The translations under genes and the position numbers were made by a program. From assembly GCF_000143415.4 (NCBI RefSeq), contig NW_003314315.1:1177514-1241513 (forward strand): DNA of 64,000 nt. The letters run 5' to 3'. Origin of the DNA: Selaginella moellendorffii (Eukaryota > Plantae > Lycopodiophyta). Shown here one piece after another: positions 1 to 55,632 of this stretch (the first letter of the stretch is position 1; each line of letters begins with the position of its first letter). The notes under the pieces were generated by a model. The model had not been told where the DNA came from. It made no database searches and saw nothing but the letters and a program-made list of their open reading frames with translations.

Positions 1-257
1 AGGCAAAAGGAATATGGCAATAGGCTAGCAGGGGCCAAAGATGGCATGAGGCTTCATGCCATCTTGATATACACACAGCTGCAGGCAAGTAAAAACATAC
101 ATGACAATACGCTAGCCATGAAATTGCAATGGCCCAAGATGGCATGTGGCCTCATGCCATTTCTAAATGTGGTCCTAAACCATTCCATGGTGAACATACC
201 AGGAAGCACAAGTGCCGAATATCAAGAGGAAGCGGTAGCCACACCAAAGACAGTGCC

Positions 258-335
258 GCTTGCAACACCGCAACTACTCGTAGCGCCGCTCGCAACACCG
301 CAACTGCTCGTAGCGCCGCTCGCACAAACTGCCAC
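258..335. repeat. 30-bp tandem repeat (GCAACACCGCAACTRCTCGTAGCGCCGCTC), two full copies plus decayed partial copies
   Basis: Directly visible; translates as repeated ATPQLLVAPL in the ORF track. Confidence 0.85.
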
Positions 336-1183
336 TCGCATAAACTGCCGCTCGCAATGGCGCTCGCAATGCCGCAACCGCTTGTAGACGCATAAACCAC
401 AGCTCACAACGCCGCTTACACAAGCAGCGCTCACTGCGCTCAGCGGAACCAAGAACACGGCGCACAAAAATGATAGACCTAGGAATGAGTTCGAGAATTC
501 AAAAATAACACACGCTTGAACGTCACATCAAATCCTCTGACAAACCAGATCTTATGATTCCTCTGACAAATTTCAAACTGAGTAGCTTCTAGACTTTGCT
601 GTCGGAGGTTGAACTTTGTCACATCATGTCCTTGCCTCGATCCAGCTGTGCCATGTCAGTGATTCGAACTTTGCCATGCCATGTCAGCGATCCGCGCCAA
701 GATTATTCGCCGTGTAAAGGAATAATTATGCTGTGTGTGTACGTCCATTTATGGCAATATAAGGCCACATGCCATTCAAAGAATAATGCTAGTCGAGCAT
801 CTTTTGGTGCATTTTTGGGTTCAAAATTGCATGAGCCCACACGCTATAAAGTTTACCTGTACCAAAAATAGAAACAGCTTTATTTACTTGGGAATTTATA
901 TGGCTGAGGCATTTTTAAACTTACAAACACATGCCCTACTTACATTCCTTTGGTTGCTTAAAATTCAAAAATATTATAAACCTTTCTTTTTGCATTTTCA
1001 ATGTTTTCAATTAGGGTTTTTGATTTTCGCAGGACCAGCCTAGTAATCTATTTGCATCCCGTCATGTTTATAGCTAGCTTTCGTTTGTCCCCTTCGCTAG
1101 CCTGAGATACATCTGCTCGGCATCTGCCTCTTACAGCATTTGCCCAGAAAGGGCATCTTTCTTCACGCAGCATTTGCCACATG

Positions 1184-1208
1184 TTTAGGGTTAGGGTTTA
1201 GGGTTTAG
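1184..1208 (+). repeat. Interstitial telomere-type repeat (TTTAGGG)~3.5
   Basis: tttagggttagggtttagggtttag. Confidence 0.9.
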
Positions 1209-2053
1209 CAATTCAGTAGCTTGATAAACTTGCAAATACAGAACTTGATGCAAAATCCTTTGATATGTCACAATGCCCCTAGGACCATAAACACATTTCA
1301 ATAGAGAGGGTCCTTTCATTTCATAACTCCTTACATAGATCTTGGTGAAACCAGAGTTAGTGAAGTTGGTTTCTTGTGATCCCGCATCTGATTGTGATGT
1401 CCCTTTGCAGTGTCGATGGAAAGGTCAATGCACACCAAACTGTAGAATCTTGGAGCAAAATAACGGTCAGATCTATGGCAAATGCCCCTGAAACATTGTA
1501 AGGCTCGTGTGGTCTCATGTGGTGTCCGATCGAGATGCTTCTTTGCAGGGTCATCAAGAAGGACATTGTATACCATTTTGTAAAATCTGGTTGCGATCTA
1601 ACGGTTGGATCTCCAGGAAACTCAAAACAATCTCGCGCGTGTCAGAATATTCTAGGAATATACTCCTATGTGCTCCAAGATTATTCGCCGTGTAAAGGAA
1701 TAATTATGCTGTGTCATTTATGGCAATATAAGGCCACACCCCATTCAAAGAATAATGCTAGTCGAGCATTTTTTGGTGCATTTTTGGGTTCAAAATTGCA
1801 TGAGCCCACACGCTATAAAGTTTACCTGTACCAAAAATAGAAACAGCTTTATTTACTTGGGAATTTAAGTGGTTGAGGCATTTTTAAACTTACAAACACA
1901 TGCCCTACTTACATTCCTTTGGTTGCTTACATTCCTTTGGTTGCTAGCTTTCGTTTGTCCCCTTCACTAGCCTGAGATACATCTGCTCGGCATCTGCCTC
2001 TTACAGCATTTGCCCAGAAAGGGCATCTTTCTTCACGCAGCATTTGCCACATG

Positions 2054-2079
2054 TTTAGGGTTTAGGGTTTAGGGTTTAG
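2054..2079 (+). repeat. Interstitial telomere-type repeat (TTTAGGG)~3.7
   Basis: tttagggtttagggtttagggtttag. Confidence 0.9.
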
Positions 2080-2807
2080 CAATTCAGTAGCTTGATAAAC
2101 ATGCAAATACAAAACTTGATGCAAAATCCTTGGATATGTCACAATGCCCCTAGGACCATAAACACATTTCAATAGAGAGGGTCCTTTCATTTCATAACTC
2201 CTTACGTAGATCTTGGTGAAACTAGAGTTAGTGAAGTTAGTTTCTTGTGATCCCGCATCTGATTGTGATGTCCCTTTGCAGTGTCGATGGAAAGGTCAAT
2301 GCACACCAAACTGTAGAATCTTAGAGCAAAATAACGGTCGGATCTATGGCAAATGCCCCTAAAACATTGTAAGGCTCGTGTGGTCTCATGTGGTGTCCGA
2401 TCGAGATGCTTCTTTGCAGGGTCATCAAGAAGGACATTGTATACCATTCTGTAAAATCTAGTTGCGATCTAACGGTTGGATCTCCAGGAAACTCAAAACA
2501 ATCTCGCGCGTGTCAGAATATTCTAGGAATATACTCCTATGTGCTCCTGAAAATGGCATGCGGCCCCACGCCATTCAAGAGATAATGCCAGATGACGCCG
2601 AGCATTTTTTGGTGCATTTTTTGGGATCAAAATTGCATGAGCCCACATGCTTGAACGTCATCCTCTGACAATTTATTTAGCTGAACATCTGGCATTTTTG
2701 GAAATACAAGATGCTTTGGAATATCCAATCATGCATGGTATAAATATAGCGAGGGTATTAAATGATATCTCAATCATGATCTTTCTTTTGGATTTCGCGT
2801 GCATGCA

Positions 2808-3183
2808 GTCCGAGGAATGATGACGTTGCGGATTTCTTTTGGATTTCACACATGCGCGCGGCGATCCAGAAATTAATGGTGGCGCCCAAGTCCGAGAAAT
2901 GATGACGTGGCGGGATTACCAACCGTCGTGACATTTCGCGCGTGTGAGGTTAGGTTTTGCATTTTGCTTCGTACTCGCGCTCGCATCGCGCTCCCACTTC
3001 TCTACAGGTTTCTCGTGTGCATCGGCGTCCACTCGCGCTTGCATCACACTCGCGCTCGCATCGCGCTCGTGTGCATCGGCGTCCACTTCAAGACACACCC
3101 AGTTTGTAACTTCGCCGCCAACTCCGCCGCCCACTCCGCCACCCACACGCAGCCCTAAACCCTAAACCCTAAACCCTAAACCC
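2808..3183 (+). promoter_or_regulatory. Putative CpG-rich promoter of the ParB-like gene: two TGACGT hexamers, an E2F-type site and a telo-box array
   Basis: Duplicated GTCCGAG.AATGATGACGT (TGACGT at 2821 and 2903), TTTCGCGC at 2934-2941, (CCCTAAA)4 at 3153-3180, all just upstream of the first GTAAGT donor sites. Confidence 0.45.
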
Positions 3184-3525
3184 GGGAGATTTCAGCGCCA
3201 CTCTCCAACTGTAAGTGGCAGAGTAGCCTTGCTGCTACGATCCGCTGCACACACAGTGCACATTCGCCAGCGAGTCCGGTTGTCACGCCTCCATTCGGCT
3301 TCAAATGGTAAGTCTTTTAGGCCAAGTAGAAAATGGCATGAGGCCACATGCCATTCAGTAGCAACATTGGCATGCACCGATTGGGCTCTCGAGTGCAGTC
3401 CGGTTACAGATGGCGTGTAGCCTCACGCCATCTTAGGATGCAGCCTCAAGACATCTGATGCAGTGGTGAATGGCGTGTGGCCTCACGTTATTTCCAGCTA
3501 CTAGCTTTTCATCTGTCAGCTCTAA

Positions 3526-6500
3526 TTGTTGTGCATTTCTGAACAGGCGAGGAATTGCGTTCTTCTTCCAGCCACTGTCAATGTGGATGCAGAGAAGGGG
3601 GAGGAGCTCACCAGTTGGACTTTCGGGATGGAAGGCGAGGATCTGAGGCTGTACAACACAGATGGTGGGAGAAAAGAATGCATGGGGATCCTCATCCAAG
3701 TGACAGACACTCCATGCAGTTCCATGCAAGAATATGGACTGGCACTTGTGGTAGAGACAGCGTCTGCCTTCAAGATCCACCTTGCACATCCTAGTGGCTT
3801 CCCGGAGGGGGGCAGCGGCTATGAGGAATTCCTAAAGGGAGCTAGGGAGAGGTTGTCCAGGAGGCCCACAATTTCAAAGACGCTGCGGGTCTATGAAGAT
3901 CACATGGAATCCACGGACCTCACCTACGGCGATGTTCAAAAACTATATTCCAACATTGAGCCGTTGAGAGTGACTCCAGTTCGCGAAGCAAAGGGGAAGG
4001 GGGTCGATCTGGAAACTACCTCGAAGCAGAAAAGGGTGGTCAAGCTCAAGCCGACGTCCGACTCTCCTGCTCCAAAAAAGAAGCTACTCAGTGATGCCAT
4101 TGCCTCGGGTTCGAACACTACACCCACCAAAAAGAAGAGCCGCAAAGAGCAGAAAGAGCAAGAAGAGGCAGCAAAAATCGTCGCAGATAATAGTACTTGT
4201 TACTATTCCAACAAAGTATATACAATCGACGTGAGCCGTATCGACATCCAAAGCAAATACAACCACAGGCTAGTATCTGATGAGTGGGTGGAGAAATTGA
4301 AGCAGAAGATGCTGGCAAGTCCAGTAACACCCGACATCGCAGACGTGATCCCCTACTACCAAAAAATGAAGGGCGAGATGAGGTTTCCAGACTTGATCAA
4401 TAGGAAGGTGTTGGACGATCAGAACATCCGGTTCTATGCCGTCTCCGGGCAGCATTCTAGCTTAGCGATGCAAGAGATAGTTGTGGATATTATGGTGGGC
4501 GAGGAGGTGAAGAAAGTCTTCAAGACAAGAGTTGTCCGCCTGATAAAAGGCAACTCGCCCCTCCGATCTATCATATACATCTCCCACGCGCAGAATGTCA
4601 AGCAAGAAACGTGCTACAAATCGGGTCTGCACGAGACATTGGCACGAACACGGAAGCTCTGGGTTCAACTGAAGAAGCCACAAAAACCAGGACAAGGACG
4701 TGCACTAGCAACTAGCGCCTGGCAGGTAAGCCTCGTTGTATGTGGCATAGCATGTGGCCTCACGCCATTTCCATTGCAGGAATTCTCGAGTCTTCTCTCG
4801 AAAACACTGGGGGTCAATGACACACTCAGCATCCATAACATTCTACTCGCGACAAAAGTTGTTTTTGACAAATGGGTAGATGTGCTGAGGAGGTACCATG
4901 ACGGGGAGTTGCCAAACTCAATGGGTGTGGAGGACGGCCGGAAGCCCAATGATTTGAAGCTCAACGCCTTGCGTTTCTCGCGGTCTCTAGACAACGATGA
5001 CCTTCTGACAGTGGCTAATGCTCTTCTACATGGTGAGGTTGTCTTCAACAAGACCAAAATGACTCTCGGCCATATTGTGACATACGAGGACTTGTGCACG
5101 ACTCTGAGAGCTCGTGCGCTATTAAAGGATTGGATCTTCGAGCAAGTGGCCGTGGAGAGGGTGAGCATCGACACCACGCAAGAGATGATGGAAGCGCTGG
5201 AGTTGTCAAATGAAGACATCGACGAGTACGTGAAGGGGGCCCCCAAGTTCATCGATCTGCTGCGGGATGCCACGAAAAGTAAAGCTGAGAAGTTGGATCA
5301 GTATCCAAATTTCATTAAGATTGATGTCAACCGCCGGCTTCAGAAACAGCTCGACCCCGCAGCAGAGGCCTATCGAGAACCTTACCGGGTATACTTGAAT
5401 TCGGATGAGGATCAAAGGTGGAGGAGCATCGTTTCCCGCGGAGATGAGCAGGTCAAGAACATCTTTTGTGTGATGGACTTCACAAACGAGGAGATCACTC
5501 ATGCAGACGAAGTCAGCTCCATCATTGACTTAATGGTGGGACTTGCGGAGGTGGAATCTTCAGTCCACTATATGATCTACGACTCCGAATCCTATCACAA
5601 GTTCTGGAAGGCCTTGAACGAGGTGAAGGCTCGGTTGAAAGGCAAGGAGATGCGGGAGATCCATGGGATAATGGCTAAGAAGAAGATACCGATGAATGTC
5701 CGCATCTTCACACTCGCCCTTGTTATTGGTCCTGCAGCAGAGTGGGACTGGAGTGACTTCCCAGCTTCGTTCGACAAGGCCAATCGAATTGATCTGAGGG
5801 AGGTCAATTTACCCGTGCCTGAGGAACTGAAGACGGCTATGGAGCTTTCGAATCCAAAGAAAGCTCCAGGTGCAGCATGGGAAATGCTCAGCTGGGTCTT
5901 CAACGCAATAGCGGGTGGGTCACCTGCTTCCGACTCCAAGGGCAAATGCGTTGTCGAGTACAACTGCGGCGGACTATTCTTTCGAGCCGCACTACTCAAG
6001 GGTGTCCCGTGTGTTGCGGTGACAAACTCCATTGAAGAGGTGACTTCAATGGAGCATATAATTACAGTTGCCAAAGAAAAACAGTATCTTCTCTGCGAAC
6101 CTGGTGAGTACGCACTTTAAGTTTAAATGTTATCTCACAAGCTCTGTATGCAGGAGCGTGGCCACCCCCAGATGCTGAAACGGCGTTAACAGCTACTGTT
6201 GAAGATACCCATGTTGGGCCGAGCTCACAACCTGCACAAGGTAAGGTCACGTGAGGCCTCACGCCATTTTGATTATAGATCGTTGTGAATATTCAGACAC
6301 GAGGACTGAAAAGCGCACTGGTGGCGCATCGAAGAAGGACAAACAGAAAAGCAATAGGAAAAAAGGAGGTACAAATTATATTTGCAATGGCGTGTGGTCT
6401 CATGCCATTCCTTGCAGGAGAAACTTCTTCAAAGGCAAAACAAGCAAGCACCAGCCAAGCTCAAACTGACAGTGGTCATAAAAAGCGAAAGCACGTTGGA

Positions 6501-8927
6501 CAGTCGTCGAGATCAGAGGCGTTTGATTCGAAAAGGAAGAAGGGCAACGAAAAGATGATAGGTAATGCCTCGCGGTTATGGCGTGTGTGCTCATGCCATT
6601 CATTGCAGATCAAGGGCTGAGTGAAAGCAGGCAATCACCACCTCATGACTCAGATTCCTATGGCGGACTCCCCTTCCCCAATCTCAATGGAGAGGTACAA
6701 TGGATGAGGGAAGCTTTTCAAGGCAGGGCCACGTTTTTCTCATCTCGTCGTCTTCGAAGGGTGCAAGAACGTGCAGAAACCATGTTAAGACAGTCAGGTG
6801 AGGATACGGTCCTAGGTCACGCACTAAAACAGGCTATGGATGTCTTGTATTTTGAGATGGAGACTCGGCCAGATGATTTTCCCAAGATGGTCCTGGAAGA
6901 ACAAGCCATCCAGCTTGAGCAGCCTATGGAAGAAATGCAGGAGGGGGATGAGGAGCCAGAGAAAGATAATGAGCAGGAAGAGCAGAAGGACGAAGAGGAG
7001 GACAAAGAAGAGGAGGACGAAGAAGAGGAGGACGAAGAGGACTTAGATGGTCCTCACAATGGTGACGATCACAATAACGACGATGACGATGATGACGACG
7101 ATGGCCAGCCTGAGGTGGCCAAAGAGCGGCGGAGGAAGGTCATACAAGACAAACCATCAGGTAAATAATAATACATCCATTCCTAACCTTTTACCATTTC
7201 TAACATTGTCCATGTAGGTCGCAGAGCAAATGGTAAGTAGAGATTATTCAGTTGAATTTACAAACTCTAGCCTTTAGTGTCGAGGAAGGATAGTGCCAAG
7301 CAAGGGTCGAAACGTATGTCCAATCCTTCAGAATCAGCAGTGCGCTCAAGTGATATCGGTCCTAGTTCCTCAATAGCAGTTGATGGTAAATACAGTATAG
7401 TCGATTCAATGTGCTAATGAGTTTGTTTTTAGTAGCACGGGAGGATACCATCTCAATCGAAGGGAGATATTTGGACATGCATATGGATCCGCCAGTGGAC
7501 TCTACTTGGCTGCAAGAGTCATCAGAGCTGGTGGAGGCTACTATCCATATCAACGCCAAGCAAGCTGACCACGCTCCACTTGATGCTGCCCATACCACTG
7601 AGTCAATCTTGTCCACGTATCCAACTGACGGTGACCAGGCGCCATTGGACCCACATGAGGCCGCCCCAGCCGCCGAGCCGGTCGTATCCTCATTTCCAAC
7701 GGACTCAACGTGTGCCCAATCGTCTGACTACGCGCCGTTGGAACCTCCCTACACCGCCCCTGCTGCCTATTCGGTCATGTCCACTTTGCCAACGGAGGCA
7801 CCAGCTGAAATGGCGTGTGATCACACGCCATCGGAACCACCCCATGCCACTGTTGAGCCAGTTGTACCAGAGTCTACAGTTGAAATGGCATGTGCCCACA
7901 CGCCATCGGATGCGATTGACCCCACATTGCAGAGGAGAGTATTTCCGCCCTTCACGTTTCCTCGACCAAAACCCTCTCAACGACCATCGGGAGCAACATT
8001 CGCTAATATTGTAGATGGTAAAATTGACTTGTACCATTTTTTATGCTGACGCATTTCATTTCAGAGTCACGGCGAAGGTACTGTATCGTTTTTGATCTGA
8101 ACGGTGTCCTTTTCTCCCATGAGCGTGGCTCGTCCTCGAATGTCATTGCACCCTCTAAAGCCTGCGGTCGCAAGTTGGTCAAAAGAGACAGATTCACATT
8201 AATCACACGGGAGAAACTGCAGGATCTAATAATGACCATGCGACACTTAAAACAGAGGGCCGGGTTCAATTTGCAATTGGGAGTTTGGACATCCATGATG
8301 CGCCACAATGCATTAACGTTGCTACAGATGATGCACGATCAGACGCGAGTAATATTACCATTTGACTTTCTCCTAACGCAGGAGGATTGCTTGACTATGG
8401 TCCATGTGAGGGGTAGCAAGCCCATCTTCGTCAAGCCAGAGGCTGTAGTGATGAACCGGACTGCTAGCTCAAGTGAAATCCTCATCATCGATGACTCGCC
8501 GATTAAAACTGCAGCGAACACGTACACATATGCAGTGCACCCCATCTCTTGCAGTATGGAAACTAGGGAGAAGAAACCGTATGTTCTGGGGGACCTTGCA
8601 AAACGGCTTGGAGCGATGGTGATAGAGAACCGGCCAGTCCAGGAGGTGGCTGCAGAAATCAACCAAATGGCAGATGGAACGGTATATCAGAAGCCATTTG
8701 ATCGGACAGACACCAGTCATCATTTATGGCATGTATATTGTCTAGCCAAACATTATTCGCATCTCCATAATCTGCTCAACCGGATGGGTTCTTCAACCAC
8801 TGAACATGAGCGTGGACGTATTAGAGAAGAGATGGCATTACTATTGGGTTTAAATCCTGATAGTGTGGAGAGTGATGAAATTCCAAGATTATTGTATAGG
8901 CGTTGGAGGCAAAAAATAACAGTCTGA
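3526..8927 (+). CDS. Large multi-exon protein (~1,600 aa): ParB/Srx-like domain + degenerate DNA N6A/N4C methyltransferase-like fold + acidic/low-complexity region + C-terminal FCP1/NIF-type HAD phosphatase domain; true start unresolved (short exons at ~3.2-3.55 kb)
   Basis: The 864-aa ORF joins in frame to downstream ORFs through GT-AG introns at 4726-4779, 6104-6153, 6241-6296 (or 6278), 6369-6417, 6562-6608, 7161-7217, 7233-7277, 7386-7432 and 8018-8064. Motifs: IDVSRID...YNHR.VS.EWVEKLKQKM...FYAVSGQHSSLA (ParB-like); NPKKAP...VVEYNCGG...AALLKGVPCVAV (MTase-like); IVFDLNGVL...VWTS...KP...IIDDSPIK (FCP1-like). Confidence 0.7.
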
Positions 8928-9671
8928 GATGGCATGTATTTATTTAAAAATGTAACTTATTATGGCATGGGGTTCCATGCCATTGTATTAATATTAAAAG
9001 ACAATTCTTTGAGAGGATTTGCATTATACTAGAAGTGTTACAGCATGTTATTGGAAGTTTACGAAGTTGTTTTATTAATAATGGGAAAGTAAAGATTGAA
9101 TGGGGACTTGGGCTCCACCTAGACTCGGAGCAATTGAGCCAATATTAAAAGGATGGAAAGAAATTGGACGACGATGACAAGGAGAAGAGAGAGGTGAAGC
9201 AGTGGCAGGGGGAGGAGAAGTGATTGAGTAGACATTTCCTTGTTTAAAATAAAATGGCATGTGCCTCAATGCAGTTGAATTTTGTTATATTTATATACTA
9301 TATAAAGGTTTGGAAACCTTATTTTACAAGTGGGATAATGACAATTCCCACTTTAACGAAATAGAGCTTAGTAGAGATTATTCAGTTGAATTTACAAACT
9401 CTAGCCTTTAGTGTCGAGGAAGGATAGTGCCAAGCAAGGGTCGAAACGTATGTCCAATCCTTCAGAATCAGCAGTGCGCCCAAGTGATATCAATCCTAGT
9501 TCCTCAATAGCAGTTGATGGTAAATATAGTATAGTCGATTCAATGTGCTAATGAGTTTGTTTTTAGTAGCACGGGAGGATACCATCTCAATCGAAGGGAG
9601 ATATTTGGATATGCATATGGATCCGCCAGTGGACTCTACTTGGCTGCAAGAGTCTGTAAACTCCTGAATTT

Positions 9672-9727
9672 GGACTTCCCGGGAGGTCACCCAGCCCAGT
9701 ACTATTCAAACCCAAGGACGCTTAACT
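9672..9727 (-). ncRNA. 5S rRNA-derived segment (A-box to C-box region) within the 3' LTR
   Basis: Minus strand AGTTAAGCGTCCTTGGGTTTGAATAGTACTGGGCTGGGTGACCTCCCGGGAAGTCC matches the plant 5S internal control region; not a full 5S gene. Confidence 0.88.
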
Positions 9728-10072
9728 CCAAAATATCCCAAGACCCTTAACCGATTGGAAAAGGGGGTGCACTCTTATTCATGGGCCCTTTCTCTCTATA
9801 TTTGAACCCCATGGATCGTCTCTCAAGTCGTTCCCTTTGGTTGCTTACAATCCATCACGCTTCCCTGCAAGTTCACGCCCTCGTGAACGGAAGCTGAGAG
9901 CCGCAGCTCTCCCGAGAGTCCTGCTCTCTTGACACCCTACCCCTCGGGTCGAGCCCAGCGGGAGCAAACTGGACCAGCCAGATGTCAATCAACATGTGGT
10001 GTGATTCCCTTAGCCAACCAACAGAGTCGGACTCGAGACCCGCTCTGATACCAAATGTAAACTCCTGAATTT

Positions 10073-10128
10073 GGACTTCCCGGGAGGTCACCCAGCCCAG
10101 TACTATTCAAACCCAAGGACGCTTAACT
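10073..10128 (-). ncRNA. 5S rRNA-derived segment within the 5' LTR
   Basis: Same sequence as 9672-9727. Confidence 0.88.
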
Positions 10129-10181
10129 CCAAAATATCCCAAGACCCTTAACCGATTGGAAAAGGGGGTGCACTCTTATTC

Positions 10182-11650
10182 ATGGGCCCTTTCCCTCTAT
10201 ATTTGAACCCCATGGATCGTCTCTCAAGTCGTTCCCTTTGGTTGCTTACAAAGTCATCAGAGCTGGTGGAGGCTACTATCCATATCAACGCCAAGCAAGC
10301 TGACCACGCTCCACTTGATGCTGCCCATACCACTGAGTCAATCTTGTCCACGTATCCAACTGACGGTGACCAGGCGCCATTGGACCCACATGAGGCCGCC
10401 CCAGCCGCCGAGCCGGTCGTATCCTCATTTCCAACGGACTCAACGTGTGCCCAATCGTCTGACTACGCGCCGTTGGAACCTCCCTACACCGCCCCTGCTG
10501 CCTGTTCGGTCATGTTCACTTTGCCAGCTGAAATGGCGTGTGATCACACGCCATCGGAACCACCCCATGCCACTGTTGAGCCAGTTGTACCAGAGTCTAC
10601 AGTTGAAATGGCATGTGCCCACACGCCATCGGATGCGATTGACCCCACATTGCAGAGGAGAGTATTTCCGCCCTTCACGTTTCCTCAACCAAAACCCTCT
10701 CAACGACCATCGGGAGCAACATTCGCTAATATTGTAGATGGTAAAATTGACTTGTACCATTTTTTATGCTGACGCATTTCATTTCAGAGTCACGGCGAAG
10801 GTATTGTATCGTTTTTGATCTGAACGGTGTCCTTTTCTCCCATGAGCGTGGCTCGTCCTCGAATGTCATTGCACCCTCCAAAGCCTGCGGTCGCAAGTTG
10901 GTCAAAAGAGACAGATTCACATTAATCACACGGGAGAAACTGCAGGATCTAATAATGACCATGCGACACTTAAAACAGAGGGCCGGGTTCAATTTGCAAT
11001 TGGGAGTTTGGACATCCATGATGCGCCACAATGCATTAACGTTGCTACAGATGATGCACGATCAGACGCGAGTAATATTACCATTTGACTTTCTCCTAAC
11101 GCAGGAGGATTGCTTGACTATGGTCCATGTGAGGGGTAGCAAGCCCATCTTCGTCAAGCCAGAGGCTGTAGTGATGAACCGGACTGCTAGCTCAAGTGAA
11201 ATCCTCATCATCGATGACTCGCCGATTAAAACTGCAGCGAACACGCACACATATGCAGTGCATCCCATCTCTTGCAGTATGGAAACTAGGGAGAAGAAAC
11301 CGTATGTTCTGGGGGACCTTGCAAAACGGCTTGGAGCGATGGTGATAGAGAACCGGCCAGTCCAGGAGGTGGCTGCAGAAATCAACCAAATGGCAGATGG
11401 AACGGTATATCAGAAGCCATTTGATCGGACAGACACCAGTCATCATTTATGGCATGTATATTGTCTAGCCAAGCACTATCCGCATCTCCATAATCTACTC
11501 AACCGGATGGGTTCTTCGACCACTGAACATGAGCATGGACGTATTAGAGAAGAGATGGCATTACTATTGGGTTTAAATCCTGATAGTGTGGAGAGTGATG
11601 AAATTCCAAGATTATTGTATAGGCGTTGGAGGCAAAAAATAACAGTCTGA
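10182..11650 (+). CDS. Duplicated 3' exons encoding the FCP1/NIF-type HAD domain (5'-truncated copy, interrupted upstream by the TRIM)
   Basis: The 294-aa ORF 10766-11650 differs from 8043-8927 at only 3 residues; the same intron is retained near 10741-10787. Confidence 0.55.
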
Positions 11651-12537
11651 GATGGCATGTATTTATTTAAAAATGTAACTTATTATGGCATGGGGTTCCA
11701 TGCCATTGTATTAATATTAAAAGACAATTCTTTGAGAGGATTTGCATTATACTAGAAGTGTTACAGCATGTTATTGGAAGTCTACGAAGTTGTTTTATTA
11801 ATAATGGGAAAGTAAAGATTGAATGGGGACTTGGGCTCCACCTAGACTCGGAGCAATTGAGCCAATATTAAAAGGATAGAAAGAAATTGGACGACAATAA
11901 CAAGGAGAAGAGAGAGGTGAAGCAGTGGCAGGGGGAGGAGAAGTGATTGAGTAGACATTTCCTTGTTTAAAATAAAATGGCATGTGCCTCAATGCAGTTG
12001 AATTTTGTTATATTTATATACTATATAAAGGTTTGGAAACCTTATTTTACAAGTGGGATAATGACAATTCCCACTTTAACGAAATAGAGCTTTATTGGGA
12101 TGATGCTCGACACTTACGTGAGTTTCCTACATGTCTTCAAGGGACGGCACTGTAGTGGTACAATGGTTTGAGCACAGCCACTCGTGGGGATTGGAGTGTT
12201 ATTTCAGATGTCTTTAAACGCACATTTGGACATGCTATCGATTGTGACGATGCCTTCTAACAATTACATAGTTTTCTTCAAGGGTCATTTGAGTTAGAGA
12301 TGCAATTTGGCATTTGTTTCCAAAGCCTTTTACTTCATGCGAAGCCAAATATGTTAGAGAAGATCAAGTTAGGAATGTTATGGCCAACACTTCATTAAGA
12401 TTTTGTCAAACTTATGCATACACTTGCTCCAACCACCCTTGATAATGCTCTTCATTTGGCACAACGTTATGAAATGTCACATCTTTCAATTCTCACTACA
12501 CATCCTTTAGCTCTACTTCCTGTGGGTAATGGTCTTA

Positions 12538-14375
12538 TGTGAGACACAAAATCCCTAGGCCCCAAAGTGGAGCCGAAAGGGTGCCACGTGGTAGTGGCCA
12601 AAGCAAAAACCAAATGAGCATAACACGTTTGGACCAAAAGCTCCGACTTGGAAAGGTCAAGAGCGAGAGTGGAACTCCCAACAAAGTGCCCGAGGAACGA
12701 GCATGAAGCGAGCAATAAGCGAGGCTCCAAAAAGGGACCCAAAAGGACCCAAGATGGAGTCCAATATGGAGTCCGAGATGGAGTCCGAGATGGGACCCGA
12801 TATGGAGTCCGGTATGGAGTCCGAGATGGAGTCCGAGATGGGACCCAAGATGGAGTCCGAGATGGGACCTGAGATGGAGTCCGAGATGGAGTCCGAGATG
12901 GGACCCAAGATGGAGTCCAAGATGGGACCCGAGATGGAGTCCGAGGTGGACCCGAGTTGGAGTCCAAGGTGGACCCGAAATGGACCCGAGATGGAGTCCG
13001 ATATGGAGTCCGAGATGGAGTCCGAGATGGGACCTGAGATGGAGTTCGAGATGGAGTCCGAGGTGGACCCGAGATGAAGCCCGAGATGAACCCGAGATGG
13101 AGTCCAAGATGGAGCCCGAGATGGACCTGAGATGGAGTCTAAGATGGAGTCCGAGATGGACCCGAGATGGAGTCCAAGATGGAGTCCGAGATGGACCCGA
13201 GATGGAGCCTGAAGTTGAGACCGAGACCGGGACCGAGACCAGGACCAAGACCGAGATTGGGACTGAGACCGAGACTGAGGCCAAGACCGAGCCTGAGACC
13301 GAGCCCGAGACCGAGCCTGAGACCGAGCCTGAGACCGAGCCCGGTCCGAGTCTGAGTCCGAGTCCGAGTCCAAGTTTGAAAGGGTGAAAGCCCAAAGCAT
13401 TTGTCTCCTAGACCCTAGGGGGTTTGGTGAGCTCCAAAAGTATAGTAGGGGGAGGACTGCAGTGGAGCCAGTTTGGCCAGGAAAGGCCAGTTTGGCCCAG
13501 GAAGGCCGGACCCAGTGTTGGGTGATGAGCTGCCCACTGGGAAGTCCAAGACTAGAGTGAACACGGACCGACAAACGGGGTAGCTTGGTGAAGTGTTCAA
13601 GAGCCAGCTCTAGTTCCCCCGGGAGATCGACTGGCCGATGCTCCCAGTCCAAGTGTGGGTGGCACTACCTACTTGGATACCTGGTGTGGCTCAACGGAAC
13701 CTCGCTCTAAGCCCATGGCTAGAGCACCCAAGGGCAGAAGGTGAGGAGAGTACCCACGAGGCCCGTGTAGGGCCACGGTGTTCCGAAATGTTGCCCCAAA
13801 GTCCCAGACTATAGAAAGGAAGAGGAGTAGCCCTCTGGTGTGGTAACCAAAGACACAGTCACACAGTGAGGAAGTCCCAGAGGACAGTTGGACTGAGTGG
13901 TCGGGCCTGTGGGCCTTGATCCAGTGGCAGTGTTGGCGAACACGGCCACGAACAGAAAGGGACTTGGTGGGGACTGGAAAAGAGATATTAGGGAAGGCTA
14001 TTCCCCATGTCTGTGAGCATCCTAAGGATGCGGAGGAGTGGATATAGGATGATCACTCATGGACGGATGGCCCAGTTTTTGAGAGATGGGACTGTGATGT
14101 AGGTGGCGTTAAACCACTGGTGTGACCAAGGTGAATAGGCATGGCCTTAGCGTAACGGGCCGATATGTCAGTGGTACCTTGGGGTGTCGGTCATGGGATC
14201 GGACACGTGGAGCACTTGGACCAAGTGCTAAGGTTGTGTGGCATGGATGCCATTCTTGGGCTATCAAGCCCCAAGTCCCGAATTGGACTTTCGGAGGTCG
14301 TGAAAGAGACTCCTCCAAGTGGTTGGAGATGTGGTTAAGTGACTAAAATAGAATGGAAAAAATTAGTCGCTTACA
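12538..14375. mobile_element. Solo LTR (~1.84 kb) nested in the gypsy gag, containing a minisatellite
   Basis: TGTGAGAC...GCTTACA termini, TSD TCTTA/TCCTA; homologous inverted copy at 24102-25541. Confidence 0.8.
12752..13372. repeat. Minisatellite: 12-bp GATGGAGTCCGA/GATGGGACCCGA units grading into 6-bp GAGACC/GAGCCT/GAGTCC units
   Basis: Directly visible; produces low-complexity ORFs in all frames. Confidence 0.95.
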
Positions 14376-16457
14376 TCCTATTTTAATGGAGGTTGATGTT
14401 GCTACTGCTTGAGTCCAAGGATAAGGCCAAGGACATGGTTGTGGCCATGATGTTCGCTGTTATGTGTGTGATGAAGTTGGTCACACTTATCGGTATTGTT
14501 GGCATTTTCCGGATTGGCAACCTCCATTTCCTAGATGGAAACTTTGGGATCAACGACATGATGTTATCTAGTATGTGCATAGCTATGTTTGGTGCCAAGC
14601 TTGTAATACTCCCCCTCGTGCCACAAAAGGACAATTAGAATCAATTGCAATTTCCCGTCCGTTTGAATTAGTGGTGTTTGATTTTATGGGACTTTTTCCA
14701 CGATTAACTATTGGCAGTGAATATGTTATTATTGCTTCTAACTATTTGACTCATTTGGTGGAAGTTAGTGCTTTTGCTAGTGCCTTTGCAACTGCTATTG
14801 GATACTTCCTCCTCAATCAAGTGGTGTTCCAACATTCTTGTCTAGAGCGGATTCTTTCAGATAATGGTCCTGCATTTATGGCAAAGGTATTTCATGTTTT
14901 GATGTCTTGGTTGGGGATATGCCACACTTTCACGAGTGTTTATCATCCACAATCAGATAGTTTGGTGGAATAGCTCATTCGGACATTCAAAGGAATTATC
15001 GCAAAGTATGTGAACTTTCAACATTTGGATTAGGATGGTTATTTGCCGTATCTTCGGTATGCATATGTCATAGAGATGCAAAATTCTGTTGGTGCTTCAT
15101 TATATAAACTCCTATACAATCATGATTTAATATTACCAATAGAGTTGGGTTTACTTTCACAATTATTACGAGTTGCTGATGTTAGGTTGTGGGATCAATA
15201 TTTGATAAGCATTCTTCCACTTGTCTGAACAATGTTTGCTGAACACTTAAACCGCATACAAGTAAGACAACAATGGCACTATAACTCCCATCATCATCCA
15301 CCTGCAAAGTATAAAATAGATTACTTAGTGTTAGTTTGTTTTCCTTATTTTACTATATGTGGTTTATCTAAAGGGCTTCTTGCTCAGTAGAAAGACCATA
15401 TTAGGTGTTGTAGCAAGTTAGACCACAAGTTTATGAGATTCGGCATAATGTCCAGCAAGTCAATCCTCCAAAAATTGTGCATGTGCAACAATTAAAACAC
15501 TTCATATAAAGGAATAAAAAATAACTGATACCACCTACAAATCCACCAATGCCTCCTTTTAATGTTCCTCCAGATCTCGGTCCATTTACAAGAGAATCCT
15601 AATGGTTTTCTATTATTCCAAAAAGAGGGGATGATATGATTTCCAATTGTACAACTATAATGCCATATACTAATATTAGTGTAGTAAGATTTTGGTAGTT
15701 GTTAGATTAGTTTCAATATGAACCACTCACTTTTGTATATAAGCTAGGGTTTTTGGGTTAATTTATATACATATTTTCTGTATTCCCTTTCCATATTCCA
15801 TGCACTCATAATGATACTTATAAATTGTTAGTAAAATTGTATGTGAACCAAATAATTTAATTAAGTTTGAGCATTATAAAAATTTATAAAGTAGTCTAAT
15901 CATTTAATCCATCTATTATTTTACTACTCAGACTAAAATATGAAAAACTCAAAAGTATCAAGTAAATATTTCTAATTCTTTGCCAAAGTTGTTAATAATT
16001 TCTCAGAACTTTGAATGTAATGGATCTCCTTTGAATTCTGTACTAATATGATCCTAAGATTTAAAATTTAATATAAGAGGTGCTTCATCAGTCATCATCA
16101 ACACAACAACAAGAACCCAGAAAGTTTTGTATTTATCTATCTCTAATGCCAAAGCTAGTAACTTTGACACCTGGATTTTTCTGAAGAAGAGTAGTGCACC
16201 TTCTTGCGATGAATAGAGCATTTGATTTTACACTGCTTGCAGCTGGATCTGGGCACTTGCAACAAGAGAAATCCATCCAAGCCACAAGAAAAAAAGGGAA
16301 TTAATTGTGTCGTTCCTGATTGCGACTGCCTCCGGCATTTGGAGTGAGGCTGCGCGATGGGGGAAGAGTTTTCGCCGCGGAAAATTTCGTGGCTGGAAGC
16401 TAGAACCTGCCAGGACTTGAACCTCGGACGTCCCCATCATCCAACGGCCATGATGTG

Positions 16458-20150: not shown

Positions 20151-20346
20151 ACTAGCCACCCCTTGTCGACCAAACCAGTGTGGCAGCCATGGTTAGTCCC
20201 GACCATTCCGAATGCCGACCGGCCGACTGTGGTTATTGACCGGCTGTGAAAATGCCGAACGGCCGAACGGTTCACAAAATTTTTTTGAAAAAAAAAAAAA
20301 CATTTTTAGTAAAACCACATTAATAAAAGTAGGAAAACCAAAGCAT

Positions 20347-20402
20347 TAAACCAAACCAAACCAAACCAAACCAAACCAAAGCATTAGACCAAACCAAACC
20401 AA
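20347..20402. repeat. (AAACC)n microsatellite inside the hAT element
   Basis: Directly visible. Confidence 0.9.
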
Positions 20403-20405
20403 CTA

Positions 20406-22535
20406 CTACTCATCTTCTTCAACATCTTCGGCAAGTCCCTCGACATCTCCGGCATCTTCCTCAACAATCACATCTTCATTTGGAAGATCTTCTTCGGCTA
20501 AATCTTCTATACCAAGAGATTCAAGCCTAGCTTGCATCTCTACAATCCTCATCCATTGTGGTTTGATTGCAATTGTGTCGAGATCGATCTCTAGGAACTT
20601 CATTCCTTCACTTTCAATACGATCCACCACTCTAGTGTTACTGTGTACATAAACCAACTTCTTCAAGTTCTCTGGAAGCAAGCGATTGCGTCGTTTGGTT
20701 TGGATCAAGTTCCAGCTACTCCAATTTCACTCACATGGAGAAGAGCACACTCCTTGGCTCAACACACGAAGTGCTAACTTCCTGAGCTTAGGCATCTCAT
20801 ATCCATAGGATTCCCACCAAGACACTGGGAATTTCCTTTTTGCTTTGCTCTTCGGCAAATCTCGATTGATAGCTCTTCCAATTCCTCGTCGAAACATATT
20901 GAATTGCTCATCTAACTTCTCTTCCAACTGAGTGTCCCCACAGCAATAGAGTGATAAATAATCCATCCAATCACTTCTTACCTCAGCATCCAAGTCTTGC
21001 TCAAGGTATGAAGGATTCAAAGCATGTGCAGCACTGTGCATAAAGCTATGCATCATAAACCATCGAGCTCTCCATCTATGTTGGTCTTCAACCAAGACAC
21101 ACTTAATTGCATCAATTTTATATGCATCAAGCTTGCCATCTTGAGTTGCAAGCTCCAATCCTTCAATCATACGATACATTGCTTCATAAATTAATCTTGT
21201 TGTTGCGCCCTCACGATCGGCAAGACGTAACACCTTCAAAATAGGAGCTACCATAACCAATAAAGTAGAAACATTCTTCCAAAATTCATCATTGAAAATT
21301 GTTGTACGAACATCTTTGGCATCCTTTGTGTTATACCACTTCGACGATTCAAATTCTGCACTCACTATGAATCGTCAAAGGCACGGGAAAACATCTTCAT
21401 GCTGGAGCTGGCTGACCATAAGAAAGATGTAAGCGAATCGAGTCTTCGCAGGCTTCATGAGTTCTCTAGAGCAGAACTTTCGAAATAAAGCAAGTAACAT
21501 CGGCTTCTCAGTTATGAACTTCACGATCTTCTCACAGTCATTTACGATCTTAGACACCCAATCAAACTTCCCAATATCCTCCAATAATAAGTCCAAAACA
21601 TGGCACACGCATTGATTGTGTAAGATAAAGGGGAATTCTTCTCTCATATGTTCCCCCATCGATACACAATTCGAAGCATTATCAATGATGACTTGAACAA
21701 CATTTTCAACCAAAATGATGGGTCTAAGTTGCTCCCAAAGCCAAAGACCAGTCTTCTCTTCTCCTTTGGTGTCAATACCCTGCCAAAATATTGAGCCATG
21801 GATAGAGGTAACCATGAAATTTATGAATGATCTACTCTTTATATCAGACCATCCATCAGTCACTATTGTACATCCAAACCGAGCCCATCCATCACGAAAG
21901 AGAGCTAACTTCTCCTTGATTAAAGTATAGTGACGAGTGAGCTGAGTAGTACGAAGCTTCTTGTAACCAAGAATCCTCAATGCAGCACTAGGTCCAGCAC
22001 TACAAGCGGCTGCGATCATCGCATGAAAATATAGGCTTTTCACAACATTAAATGGTATAGCATTCAAGAAAATGAACTTTGATATCGCATCATCTAAGTT
22101 CATGTTTCTTGCATCATCAAGCATTTCCTCAATATTGCCATCTCGCATTCGCTTTCGACCAACAGATGATCCCTCATGGCCTATAGAAGCACTCATAGGC
22201 TGAGATTGACTAGCACTTTGTGTACCAGCTCTAGAAGCAAATGCCCCATCAAAATGCCTACTCTATAGATTTGCTGTAGAAGGTAAAGACAAAGGGGCAT
22301 TTGCAATTTGCTCCACAAACATTCGGTGAGCTTGGTTCTGAATATGAAGAGGAACGTTTGAAGCACTACATGCTTCAATATCATGCCCAGAAACTTTAGC
22401 AAGATGCGCCTTGATGCGTTTCGGCGGACCGCCATACATTTTACCACAATAATTACATTTCCAACGCCCAGCTCCTTTGCTGGAAGCATAAGGAGTGAGC
22501 TTGGTAACATGGGACCATGCCCAATCGGGCGCCAT
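20406..22535 (-). pseudogene. hAT transposase (BED zinc finger, DUF659-like region, dimerisation domain), disrupted
   Basis: WKCNYC...HLA...H...C; GCTIVTDGWSD; CVCHVLDLLLEDIGK; WWESYG...LALRVLSQ..SSPCE; KRRNRL...KLVYVHSN; split over four ORFs by stops and frameshifts. Confidence 0.92.
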
Positions 22536-22879
22536 CGCTCAATTGTGCCAGAATCGCTATGAATCTCTACAATCAAATCTCTAGAATCACTGAATTTCCA
22601 TTTTAGGGCAAAAACTTCAAGTGTCGCGGACTGGGCGATTTGATTTGTGAGGCCTCAGTGCTGCTCCACGCTCAATCGAAAGCAGAGGCAGGTACGCACG
22701 CAGCTCCTATGCCCTCCCCTCCTCGCCGCAGCAGCATCAGAAATCTAGCGCGAAGCGCGATCACTATTTTTTTTTTCCCCGACATTTTTTTTTTTCCCGA
22801 ACGGAATCACGAACGGACCTGTCCGAACGCGGTCGGCGGCAGTCGGGGTGTAGGCCGACCGCGGTCGGGACCAACAATG

Positions 22880-23500
22880 GTGGCAGCAGACCGATAGAAC
22901 TGAAGAGAATGTCACAGCATCCGGCTTGGCGAACTCTTGCATTCTCTGAAACAGATCAAACATTGCATCACTGTCCCCTTGATGGCTGTATCCTGCGATC
23001 AGTGCTCTCCAAGACACTGCGTCCTTGTCTCGAAACCCATCAAACACTCAGCGATGCCATAGAAACTTATGAGGGAGTTTGCCACCGCTGGAGAGTTCTC
23101 TGCCCAGCTTCTTCCATCAGACCAGCCTGTAGTTCTCCAAGACCTCCACAAGCCTTAAGTACCGCAGCAAAAGTCTGCAAGTTGGGGTTCAATCCTTGGA
23201 GTATCATCCTTAAAAATCTCCTGCAGGGCAAGCTCATGGTTGCCACTCTCGGTGTATGCTTCGATCATGGTGTTCCACGAACGACGTCTTTGATCACCAT
23301 CTTGTCAAAAACCCGAGCCGCATCATTCAAACTTCCACACAGAAAGTAGAGACTGATCAAGTTGTTTGCAGTGTAAGCATCTTCCAGCCCGTCGAGAAAG
23401 TCAATGCCTTTTCCAGCGATGCCACTCTCAAGGACTTTCCATCCACAAGCCGAGCCTCTTCCTTCTCGGCCATATCCAGCTACATGTGGTGCGGCCAGCC
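22880..23500 (-). pseudogene. PPR pseudogene split by the hAT; resumes at ~20150-20187
   Basis: FDGFRDKDAVSWRALIAGYSHQG...PDAVTFSSVLSVCCH on one side of the hAT and HTGLVDKG on the other. Confidence 0.8.
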
Positions 23501-24101
23501 GGATCTCGCGCTGATTTTAGGGTTCTTGAGGTTTAGAGATGAAGAACAAATATCTGGCGGTGGAAGAGCGGCGCTGTGGAAAATGTTCAAAGCATAGAGA
23601 ACTTATACAACTCATGACCATTTTTCTGTTCGTTTTCTTTCTTTACAGGATAGAAAAAGACTAAGAAGGAGGATAATCAAAATGCAAAACTGTGCTTGAT
23701 CTATGCAAACTCACTGGATGCGAGATTTGATCAGGGCTCCCAAAACTTGGCCAGGTCTTTGGTATAGACAGTCCGGTCCTGGATCTGCCAATCTACGATC
23801 CTTGCCTGGGTACATTTACAGATGAGCAGAGCGAGAAACAAATCCTCCCTGCTTCATTTATAGAAACAGCAGTGAGCGACAAAATCTCGAACAAAACTTT
23901 CCTGTCAATTTTCCTTGGTTGAGTGAGGTTTTTTTGTAGAGGTGGATTTGTAGAAGTTTAGGTCTTTAGCAAAGTCAATCAATTCTACATTTAAGGCCAT
24001 AATTAATTTTAAGATATTCCAATTATAGGATAATGTCATCTTTATGTTGTTGAAACCTTCTAGAGGTGCAAAGAGATTAACTACACTAACAATTTGTTAG
24101 T

Positions 24102-25541
24102 TGTAAGTGATTAATTTTTTTCATTATACTTTAATCATTTAACTACACTTTAGATTAGTTGAAGTCTTACTTATAACCTTCATGAGTCTTATTCCTAACT
24201 TGAGGACTTGATAGCCTTATAGATGACATTTATACTATTTTATTTTTGCACTTGGTCCAAGTGCTTTATGTATTTGATCCTAACACAAACACCCAAAGGT
24301 ATTACTAACATATCAACCTGTTATGCTAAGGCATGTCCATTCACTTTTGTTTTATTAATAATCTAAGACTATCCATACCATAAACCCATTTCCCATATCC
24401 ACACTTTAGCACCTTTAGAATGATATAAAGAATACCCAATATCCCTTCTTTAATCCCCACTAAATCCCACTCCATTCACAGTAGAGTTTGCTTATACTGC
24501 CACTGAGTCAAAGCTTAAAGGTGTGACCATTAAGTTCTATTGACCTCTAAGACTTCCTTACCACATGATTATTCCTTTGGTCACTACACAAGAAGATTGT
24601 TTTTTTTCCTTTTCATAATTTGAAACCTTATGACAACATTTCAAAACACCATGACCCTATATGAGCGTTGTGAGTGCTCTCCCCACCCTCCGCCCTTAAA
24701 TGCGTTAGCCATGTGGCTAAAGTGAGGTTTTGATGAGCCACACTAAATATCCAAACAAGTAATGCTATCCATACTTGAATTGGGAGCATTAACCATTTGA
24801 TCTCTTAGGGCAGCTAGAGCTAGCTCTTAAGTTACCCCATTTGTTTGTTTATGTTCATTTTAGCCTTGAACTCTTTATTGGTTATATTATCACCTACTAT
24901 ATGGATATAACCTTCCTTGCTCACATTGTTTTTCCTAGCCAAATTGGTTCCACTAGAGTCCTCCCTTTATTATCCTTTTGGAGCTCACCAAACCCTTCAA
25001 GGTCTAAGAGATGATTACTTTGGGCTTTTACTCTCGGACTTAGACTTGGACTTAGTCGTGGTCTTGGTTTTGGTCTCAGTCTCGGTCTCGGTCTCGGTCT
25101 CGGTCTCAGTCTTGGTCTGAGTCTCAGTCCCAGTTTCAATCTTAGTCTTGGTCTCGGTCCTAGTCTTGGACTCTATAATGGACTCTATCTCGGACTCTTT
25201 AGACTGTATCTTGGATTCCTGCTTGAACTTCATTTTAAACTTCTTCTCAAACTCTATTTCGGACTTCATCTTGGACTTCATATTAGACTCGGTCCCATCA
25301 CTTCCATATGTCAAGACACTTGCCATTTGTTAGTTCTTCTTGTATCCTTTTTTAGAGATTCATTCACTAATTGTTTCTTGCTTATTCCTCGAGCACTTTA
25401 TTCAAAATTTCACTCACACTTTTGACTTTCCAAATTAGAGTTTTTAATCCAAACATATTATATTTATTGAACTTCCGCTTCGACCACTGCCATGTGGCAC
25501 ACTTTAACTCCACTTTGGGGCTTAGGGATTTGTGTCTCACA
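24102..25541. mobile_element. Older solo LTR of the same family as 12538-14375, opposite orientation
   Basis: TGTAAG...GTCTCACA termini, perfect TSD TTAGT/TTAGT, shorter decayed minisatellite at ~25030-25290, many C-to-T/G-to-A changes. Confidence 0.85.
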
Positions 25542-25899
25542 TTAGTATAGAATGTAATTATCTTAGCATAAGCCTTAAGCATATTAGGCAACATTTTATG
25601 GCTAAAGATGTAAGTTAAAGTCATTGGTGTTGGTGTTAGCTTCATATATTGCATTTGAAAACAGTTCAAAAAATATAAAATATAATAAGTTGATGACAGC
25701 TCCATGACTAAGGCAATACTTGATTGGTCTAATATTGACCATATTAAACCTTGAGGACGATTGCTCTTGAACAACAATTGAAATGATTATATTATCCACA
25801 ATGATGATTATGAGCACTCCTAATTTTCATCTAGTTCTTTTATTGAGAGTTGTAGAAAATGATCTCGTTGTACTTCATGGTGGGCACACATCATGACAT

Positions 25900-51940: not shown

Positions 51941-52025
51941 AGGACAAGTTGATAACTTTTGTTTAACGGTGGAATACATTTTAAAAACCATCGCCACATT
52001 TTTAGGTTTGTGGAAGGCATGGGCG

Positions 52026-53084: not shown

Positions 53085-53129
53085 AGCATTGTGTCGTAGT
53101 GTCACCCGGATGTGCAGTTCATTTTCTCA

Positions 53130-54900: not shown

Positions 54901-55632
54901 CATAGATGTGCTTCTCCTGAAGTTTTCATGGCAAGATGGCTTGTGATCTGCCAAGCAAGAAGAAGAGCTTATTACCATCTTATAGAGCAGTGAAAACGGA
55001 AGCTCAAGAGAAGAGAAATATTTTACCTCGAAAGTCCATGGTAGCCGCTAACACATTTCTTGCAAAACGGATCTTTCTAATATTAGATCTTTGCTGTTTG
55101 AGCAATTGTAAAGCCATTTAAATGGCTTGCTTACCTTCGAAAATCCATGGCGCCCCACAGCGCACGCGCCATAGCTATGAAAGACAAATATCTAGCGGTA
55201 AGGAGTGCCAAAGAATGTCTCTCCGTCTTCGACAAACATACTACATTCCATTGTCCAAATCGTGGAAGAGTTTCGGACCTGGAGACGCTCTTCTTTGAGA
55301 TCGACATCTCCTCAAGCAAACATAGTGGCTCTTGGCAGAGATTTGGAAGACGATGCTACTGGAGGGATGGCGGCCCGATAGCATTGCGTCCCCCTTTCTC
55401 TGTCGAGCGACTCCACGGATTATCGCTGAGATGAATTCAGTGCCCTGGGACTACTACGATCGCAGCATTTCCGGAATAGGCATCCCTCAATCTCCACAAG
55501 ACAATGCTGCACGAAGAAACCACGGCACCTTTGTCCTTCCTTAAACTCCGACCTTTGTTGACCTGTGTCCTTTTAAACCGCTCAAGAGTGTCCAGAATCT
55601 CAGCAACTCGAAACATTTTGGGTTTAAACGGA

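Follow-up and report, generated by a model that had tools for sequence, protein, structure and literature searches.

A 22-bp palindrome confined to a multi-copy element of Selaginella moellendorffii and a candidate ParB-fold protein that may read it

Which protein reads a palindrome that recurs about twenty times in one part of a lycophyte contig, and what might this reading do for the DNA that carries it? The question is raised by a stretch of 64,000 nucleotides from Selaginella moellendorffii (contig NW_003314315.1, positions 1,177,514 to 1,241,513 of the forward strand), called the window here and numbered from its first letter, in which the palindromes occupy an island at positions 1-12092. 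The first-pass annotation of this DNA had taken them for candidate parS-like sites and had proposed that they form a self-recognising system with a ParB-like protein encoded among them, comparable to that of VANDAL transposons. The best reading of our results is likely a VANDAL/VANC-like self-recognition (anti-silencing) system, built on an unrelated ParB-fold protein.

The 22-bp motif ATGGCRTG-N6-CAYGCCAT was scanned along the whole window, both exactly and with up to three mismatches. There are 13 exact matches, the same 13 that had been listed before as good copies. With up to three mismatches 21 matches were found, 20 of them within 41-11998 and one at 62608, and 100 shuffles of the window gave a mean of 0.86 and a maximum of 4. 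The earlier figure of about 20 copies therefore stands as a count for 41-11998 (0.86 expected), but five of these matches (1795, 10533, 10608, 11685 and 11977) lie inside local duplications of the window copy, identified by self-comparison (694-960/1672-1929, 1073-1814/1943-2651 and 7236-9369/9370-12092). The non-duplicate sites number 15, or 16 counting 2632. Near copies are present at 3470, 4747 and 6246, with 2, 1 and 3 mismatches respectively. Among the copies described as decayed, those at 826, 1795, 9254, 11977 and 2632 (4 mismatches) were recovered, whereas the one at 751 has a spacer of 9 nt and the one at 1720 is its more decayed duplicate. The confinement to the island, reported before as a complete absence from the remaining 52 kb, is true of the exact palindrome, the match at 62608 being the exception at the looser threshold. 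Half-sites are distributed in the same way, with 37 exact ones in 1-12092 versus a single one in the other 51.9 kb of host-gene-rich DNA. The motif was also met in 62 viral loci with one copy in each, which looks like chance.

The geometry of the site is fixed. A spacer of 6 gave 14 matches with at most two mismatches, and any other spacer from 0 to 14 gave two at most. The spacer letters had been considered free; actually they are mostly WGGCCW (14 of the 16 non-duplicate sites agree at 4 or more of the 6 positions, and 5 of 16 in full), so that the consensus is palindromic over all 22 bp, though more loosely at its centre. Degeneracy in the arms is found at two positions, one in the CpG of each arm, and the variation of the arms is mostly a CpG/TpG switch on one strand per arm. 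Ten of 16 sites have A at position 6 and eight have T at position 17, and no site departs from C5 or G18, that is, CpG-type variation is tolerated 18 times versus 0 at C5/G18. Neutral decay between the tandem copies of the island (see below) is strand-symmetric (11 A/G and 11 C/T). The 18:0 pattern fits a protein that would need C5:G and accept either TpG or (methyl-)CpG on the other strand; protein readers may treat TpG and methyl-CpG as equivalent. The pairs formed by the variable positions R6 and Y17 were A-T in 6 sites, A-C in 4, G-C in 4 and G-T in 2 (Fisher p 0.61, 16 sites), and this lack of covariation between the arms argues against a hairpin. One of the A-C mismatched sites, at 4747, is covered by a contig from X12 (X6, X12 and X13 are three small read runs of one sample) that differs from the window over 4380-4858 only at 4464 and 4739, which makes the mismatch the family form and not a private decay. 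The flanks are A-rich ahead of ATGGC and T-rich behind GCCAT, and Rfam gave only chance matches near the sites. The fixed spacer, the arms without covariation and the general lack of target-site duplications (TSDs) make it likely that a dimeric protein binds the palindrome as double-stranded DNA; a site for a dimeric protein had been suggested in the first-pass annotation. Neighbouring sites form pairs (751/826, 2553/2632, 3333/3410 and 7810/7885) spaced by 75-79 nt in three unrelated contexts (promoter, intron 1 and coding linker), and this spacing may reflect cooperative binding.

The position of the sites is best seen against the gene model predicted for the island. Once ten predicted GT-AG introns are removed, 3305-8927 reads as a single open frame of 1,643-1,649 codons followed by a stop. 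The model and the domains predicted within it are as follows:
3305..8927, plus strand: predicted 11-exon gene of about 1,645 aa, a GT-AG model in a single stop-free frame
3308-3546, 4726-4779, 6104-6153, 6241-6296 (or -6278) and 6369-6417, plus strand: predicted introns 1-5
6562-6608, 7161-7217, 7233-7277, 7386-7435 (or -7432) and 8018-8064, plus strand: predicted introns 6-10
4186..4623, plus strand: predicted ParB/Sulfiredoxin-fold domain with SGQHS in place of GERR (predicted structure, Foldseek, ESM Atlas)
4780..5370, plus strand: helical region conserved among homologs, candidate DNA-binding part
5371..6103, plus strand: degenerate N4C/N6A DNA-methyltransferase-like domain without a DPPY/SPPY motif (Atlas 0.80, homolog alignment)
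8065..8927, plus strand: NIF/FCP1-like HAD domain in the last exon (PF03031, E 3.5e-6), with DLNGV in place of DxDx[T/V]

The palindromes, which have no strand, are placed in and around this gene as follows:
41..160: palindromes 41 and 139, in a candidate intron (donor 199, minus strand, splice-like signals by eye) of a divergent gene running out of the window
751..847: palindromes 751 (9-nt spacer) and 826 (2 mismatches), intergenic
1720..1816: palindromes 1720 and 1795, duplicates of 751/826 by local duplication (694-960 versus 1672-1929 at 94%)
2553..2653: palindromes 2553 (exact) and 2632 (4 mismatches), ahead of the gene
3333..3491: palindromes 3333, 3410 and 3470, predicted intron 1
4747..4768: palindrome, predicted intron 2 (54 nt)
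6246..6267: palindrome, predicted intron 4
6387..6408: palindrome, predicted intron 5 (49 nt)
6578..6599: palindrome, predicted intron 6 (47 nt)
7810..7906: palindromes 7810 and 7885, in one frame at a distance of 75 nt, coding sequence (low-complexity linker)
8962..9275: palindromes 8962 (exact) and 9254 (3 mismatches), past the stop codon and short of the element terminus

Seven of the nine in-gene sites fall in predicted introns, which offer 8.6% of the start positions (binomial p ~1e-6; three of the seven share intron 1), and the other two are in frame in the coding linker. The remaining sites are intergenic, 3' of the stop codon, or in the candidate intron of the divergent gene. This placement, which agrees with the VANDAL-like pattern proposed before, had been missed in the first-pass annotation, as had the fusion to pseudo-methyltransferase and NIF domains and the terminus of the element. 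Degenerate motif copies in the other linker repeats scored below background and give no sign that the linker arose from repeats with the motif. The divergent minus-strand gene is seen at 1-520 as a candidate first exon and intron. A contig from X6 carries other letters ahead of position 42, and the window copy may be rearranged at its first palindrome.

The domain that gives the protein its likeness to ParB was recognised from its predicted structure; Pfam, PHROGs, NCBIfam and PDB sequence searches did not detect it. The model of the ParB core (predicted local distance difference test, pLDDT, 79) matched Noc in Foldseek with E 4.9e-4, and all 27 among the matches listed are ParB/Srx-fold entries. 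In the VIA structure comparison it matched PadC with Z 9.5 (root-mean-square deviation 2.9 over 100 residues) and KorB with Z 8.9 (2.7 over 94); sulfiredoxin and ParB structures are matched as well. In ESM Atlas the core lies closest to DUF3723 (0.97) and ParB_N (0.92). The ParB-like protein announced by the first-pass annotation is thus borne out as a prediction of fold. In a weak profile alignment (E 0.09) its GQHS motif aligns with the GERR of ParB, and in 16 family sequences the G and H are invariant and the S nearly so. The helical region that follows matches the ParB profile weakly, and only at the helices after the helix-turn-helix (HTH), with a score of 19.4 versus 11.3 or less in 20 column shuffles; a single-sequence fold of 4198-5370 had pLDDT 33. 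In the methyltransferase-like domain the catalytic (D/S/N)PPY is replaced at the expected strand by DFTN/DLTH (by eye, in the element and in the Riccia homolog P0041), and neither PPY nor PPF occurs in the 864-aa open reading frame (ORF). An active N4C/N6A methyltransferase (PF01555) was rejected for want of this motif. An acidic low-complexity linker separates this domain from the NIF domain.

The island is the right part of a multi-copy element, likely a large DNA transposon. Kilobase contigs over it were read at a depth of ~75-137, and the host genes at 16.3-20 kb at 0-3. Such depth, which is no copy number, suggests tens of copies. The parts of the element in view, with one further array, are:
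1..9369, no strand: right part of the multi-copy element, from read depth, the left end lying outside the window
3153..3183, plus strand: telomere-repeat (telo-box-like) array upstream of the ATG, with opposite-strand arrays at 1183-1208 and 2053-2079
9328..9369, plus strand: right terminus, with a hairpin at 9328-9353 (8-bp stem, 10-nt loop), then 16 nt, ending in ...ATAGAGCTT
9370..12092, plus strand: partial tandem copy of 7236-9369 with the same terminus, duplicate sites at 10533, 10608, 11685 and 11977, and a Cassandra-like terminal-repeat retrotransposon in miniature (TRIM)

The terminus is sharp and shared. After ...AATAGAGCTT four different continuations were observed: the internal restart at window position 9370, retroelement-like DNA at 12093, and the unrelated loose ends of an X6 and an X13 contig. 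All four have ...GAGCTT in common, in which the T of the element and the T of the target are inseparable without a left end or an empty site. The X13 contig at the terminus has 872 of its 1213 letters on the element at a mean depth of 86, as expected if the remainder were near-unique flank, and an X12 contig stops at 12086. The stem-loop 16 nt from the end folds with z -2.9 (for an 86-nt stretch). No reverse-complement partner of the terminal 12-14 nt was found within the window, and no transposase is in view in the right part of the element that the window holds. The tandem copy differs from 7236-9369 at 22 of 2126 aligned bases, all transitions. The window copy is ~1% different from the majority form (22 of 2052 letters in one X13 contig), most of the differences being A>G or T>C (121 of 198 sites in X1), and this excess is the decay pattern of methylated C in the window copy.

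The two long terminal repeats (LTRs) of the TRIM inside the tandem copy (9655-10251) are 196 bp long and differ at 1 position. Both contain a stretch similar to 5S rRNA (Rfam E 8e-5, short of the gathering threshold), and the TRIM has a TSD of 5 bp, altered by one transition; no Rfam match in 1-16000 reached that threshold. A stretch of 38 nt (3210-3247), 3' of the telomere-repeat array and ahead of the ATG, matches abundant contigs in two presumed-RNA runs, the flanks of which we take to be the 3' end of 25S rRNA; Rfam did not call this stretch. The contigs from the two presumed-RNA runs that lie over the element are unspliced.

How would such a system work? At a little less than even confidence, we propose that the binder is the element's own predicted ParB-fold/pseudo-methyltransferase/NIF-like fusion, which would load on each copy and keep it transcribed or less methylated. 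The protein would read each arm as CA(T or C)GCCAT. Since T or C is accepted and the change on the opposite strand never is, it would read TpG and methyl-CpG alike and could bind a silenced copy. By dimerising on the palindromes, methylated ones included, it would promote the expression or the demethylation of the copies. The degenerate methyltransferase, phosphatase and ParB modules would serve as binding or decoy scaffolds and not as enzymes, for contact with DNA or bases, contact with the C-terminal domain of Pol II and dimerisation. Selection would place sites in nearly all non-coding niches, introns of 47-56 nt included, and density along the whole element would matter as it does for VANC21.

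Several points weigh against this proposal. The introns were picked by eye from splice signals, and intron 2 is the only one with outside support. The profile match of the helical region has a probability of 3.5% (E 0.012) and no HTH was recognised in it. The GxxR arginine patch of ParB binds CTP; in this protein the arginines of the CTP clamp appear to be replaced (His/Ser), making a ParB-type spreading doubtful. The palindromes share ancestry, so the formal p-values overstate their independence. Decay of the methylation type evidently still affects the element. A second element gene, or a transposase outside the window, could be the binder. Finally, PMC13229309 describes phage ParBs whose role is to activate enzymes and in which no DNA-binding domain is obvious.

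Among known systems the nearest in behaviour is VANDAL/VANC. Passages of PMC5735166 describe VANC21 as binding a 9-bp motif accumulated in the non-coding regions and introns of VANDAL21, and the element studied here likewise combines a short element-specific motif, dense in non-coding DNA and introns, with an element-encoded protein that is not a transposase. In the same passages, however, VANC motifs are of 8-9 bp and lie in one orientation in tandem repeats, and here the site is a 22-bp palindrome mostly outside tandem arrays. Binding has been shown for VANC, whereas the binder proposed here is predicted from sequence, and what is seen of the terminus does not resemble Mutator. The VANC-type protein domain is DUF1985; Pfam gave no match to a domain of this type in the four element ORFs scanned nor in 20 homologs. 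With ParB/parS, Noc/NBS and KorB/OB the element shares the ParB/Srx N-terminal fold and the presence of several palindromes within the gene and near it. It differs from them by GQHS in place of GERR, by the fusion to pseudo-methyltransferase and NIF domains, by being a plant gene with introns, and by the length of its site, 22 bp including a 6-bp centre, which exceeds that of known parS/NBS sites. No ParA was seen by eye among the ORFs of 1-12092, and literal membership of ParABS was rejected because the GxxR arginines align with His/Ser. The system works like VANDAL/VANC and looks like ParB/parS; having neither the VANC-type domain nor GxxR, a defining feature of each, it is filed under neither.

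Three other comparisons concern the class of the element and the origin of its protein. End-sharing arrays are known in rolling-circle elements. The partial tandem copy with its common end fits a rolling-circle behaviour (a general link, in passages of PMC12001565). Passages of PMC11417382 give for HLE2 (Helitron2/Helentron) a stem-loop near the end and TT at the boundary, and report HLE2 in land plants; the window element has such a stem-loop, and TT stands at its end in the shared ...GAGCTT. In contrast to HLE2, RepHel and the left end are not in view in the window. 'ParB' and 'NIF' were not found in one supplement of that paper, whose passages name only some of its 20 captured domains; Replitrons (passages of PMC10288648) were considered as a further class. 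In fungal Starships, DUF3723 is a conserved accessory gene according to passages of bioRxiv 10.1101/2021.12.13.472469, and here too a ParB-like domain (Atlas DUF3723 0.97) would be the accessory gene of a giant eukaryotic transposon. The differences are the plant host, the tyrosine-recombinase captain (DUF3435), not seen in a window that holds the right part only, and the cognate palindrome, which those passages leave unmentioned for DUF3723. Pfam gave no sequence-level match to DUF3723 in the element ORFs or homologs. Lastly, passages of PMC4738411 describe phage ParB-methyltransferase loci, in which a ParB-type module adjoins or is fused to an N6A/N4C methyltransferase as in our protein, together with eukaryotic derivatives and inactive methyltransferase domains on DIRS1 transposons. 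Those derivatives are of algal and chytrid clades, with Selaginella unmentioned in these passages, and here by contrast the methyltransferase is degenerate and followed by NIF.

The fusion protein has relatives outside this locus. The full HMMER scan gave 23 matches, of which P0005, P0006 and P0012 were left out for their repetitive or compositional look, leaving 20 homologs; shared-word searches found no relatives. The best one is annotated from S. moellendorffii itself. In the liverwort Riccia sorocarpa, P0041 combines a ParB core, PF01555 (E 5.8e-4, below cut-off) and NIF, that is, the same architecture; Riccia has four gene models, the contigs of which all differ in length, and there is a Calypogeia relative too. 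Judging from these sequences, the combination of ParB, methyltransferase and NIF appears old and dispersed in non-seed plants. No loci of relatives were found in metagenomes or in viral contigs. An annotated Selaginella paralog (P0001/P0024/P0025/P0026, ~25% identity) covers only a part of the fusion, from the end of the ParB core through the helical region to the pseudo-methyltransferase part, and may be a domesticated or truncated relative. The homologs also bear on intron 2, where ten genomic read-through clusters lose similarity and then stop shortly past the same W/F-x-V position, and where the junction WQ-EF is common to the window model and the RefSeq paralog P0024. This intron is the only one for which an introner origin was checked, and its position is not recent or lineage-specific.

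The rival that survives best, itself unlikely, has the sites bound by another protein of the element, an unseen transposase or the product of the divergent left-hand gene, for transposition, either by coating and looping or by a control like that of CACTA TnpA; the ParB fusion would then be an unrelated accessory. Two sites in the candidate intron of the divergent gene and two not more than 410 nt from the terminus would suit such a binder, as would the weak assignment of the helical DNA-binding region and a transposase still out of view. Against it, most sites lie 1.5-9 kb from the sole visible end of the element without any grading towards it, and the ParB fold is the one visible module with known relatives that bind palindromes as dimers (Noc, ParB and KorB structures).

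It is improbable that the sites recruit a host transcription factor and act as germline enhancers for the element. The arm with its A-rich flank resembles the YY1-type consensus AANATGGC and contains an RY/CATG core, the flanks have the matching A-rich and T-rich composition, and the telo-box-like arrays in the same promoter suggest a use of host signals. A host factor would however meet just one exact half-site in the 51.9 kb of host-gene-rich DNA, and the rigid inverted 6-bp spacing is unexpected for a monomeric zinc-finger factor. We consider it quite improbable that the motif is a neutral one, spread by short tandem duplication and gene conversion in the element and surviving where it is tolerated (introns and linker). 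The WGGCCW spacer consensus shows common descent, introns 2, 5 and 6 are alike near their ends, and there are several local duplications in the copy. Set against this are arms that stay nearly invariant beside diverged flanks, the 18:0 asymmetry at the CpG positions, which is not neutral, and the intron 2 position common to distant homologs. Very improbable, and rejected here, are RNA or single-stranded DNA hairpins (splicing aids or rolling-circle signals) and introns born as introner or miniature inverted-repeat transposable element (MITE) insertions, since, for all that three sites end 9-11 nt ahead of a 3' splice site and the terminus resembles rolling-circle ends, the arms do not covary and have an A-C mismatch in 4 of 16 sites, sites also lie in intergenic and coding DNA, 14 of 15 have no TSD (the other has 3 nt; an independent MITE with its own TSDs had been named as the finding that would speak against the system), not all of the ten introns, similar in length except intron 1, carry a palindrome, and the intron 2 position is ancient.

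Outside the island the window carries pentatricopeptide repeat (PPR) genes and other genes with short introns. Next to the island, at 12093-15500, lies decayed DNA that resembles an LTR retrotransposon; it includes a fragment of an integrase (rve) and a tandem repeat read at very high depth, and a related inverted copy is at 24100-25550. A broken hAT transposase (DUF659 and dimerisation domain) is inserted between host sequences at 20160-22880, and three F-box-like gene copies (87-91% alike, family assigned by eye) occupy 52014-58933, with a fragment at 44.4 kb.

No description of the element or of the fusion protein was found in the open-access literature (Repbase lay outside the search). We put forward, as possible though rather unlikely in its full form, that giant rolling-circle-type transposons of non-seed plants domesticated a phage or plasmid ParB-methyltransferase module as a self-recognition system, whose dimer on 22-bp parS-like intron palindromes would read CpG-methylated sites and shield or activate the copies. 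If so, it would amount to anti-silencing derived from ParB/parS in a eukaryote, convergent with VANC, and would suggest for the uncharacterised DUF3723 genes of fungal Starships a function that can be tested. Among transposon proteins that counter silencing in a sequence-specific way, those of the Arabidopsis VANDALs are the best documented. If the self-recognition reading is true, lycophytes would offer a second, unrelated solution, drawn from a fold of bacterial chromosome segregation; given the same architecture in liverworts, the strategy would be both convergent and old. It would also provide a defined 22-bp site with a candidate reader, which might serve targeted epigenome editing.

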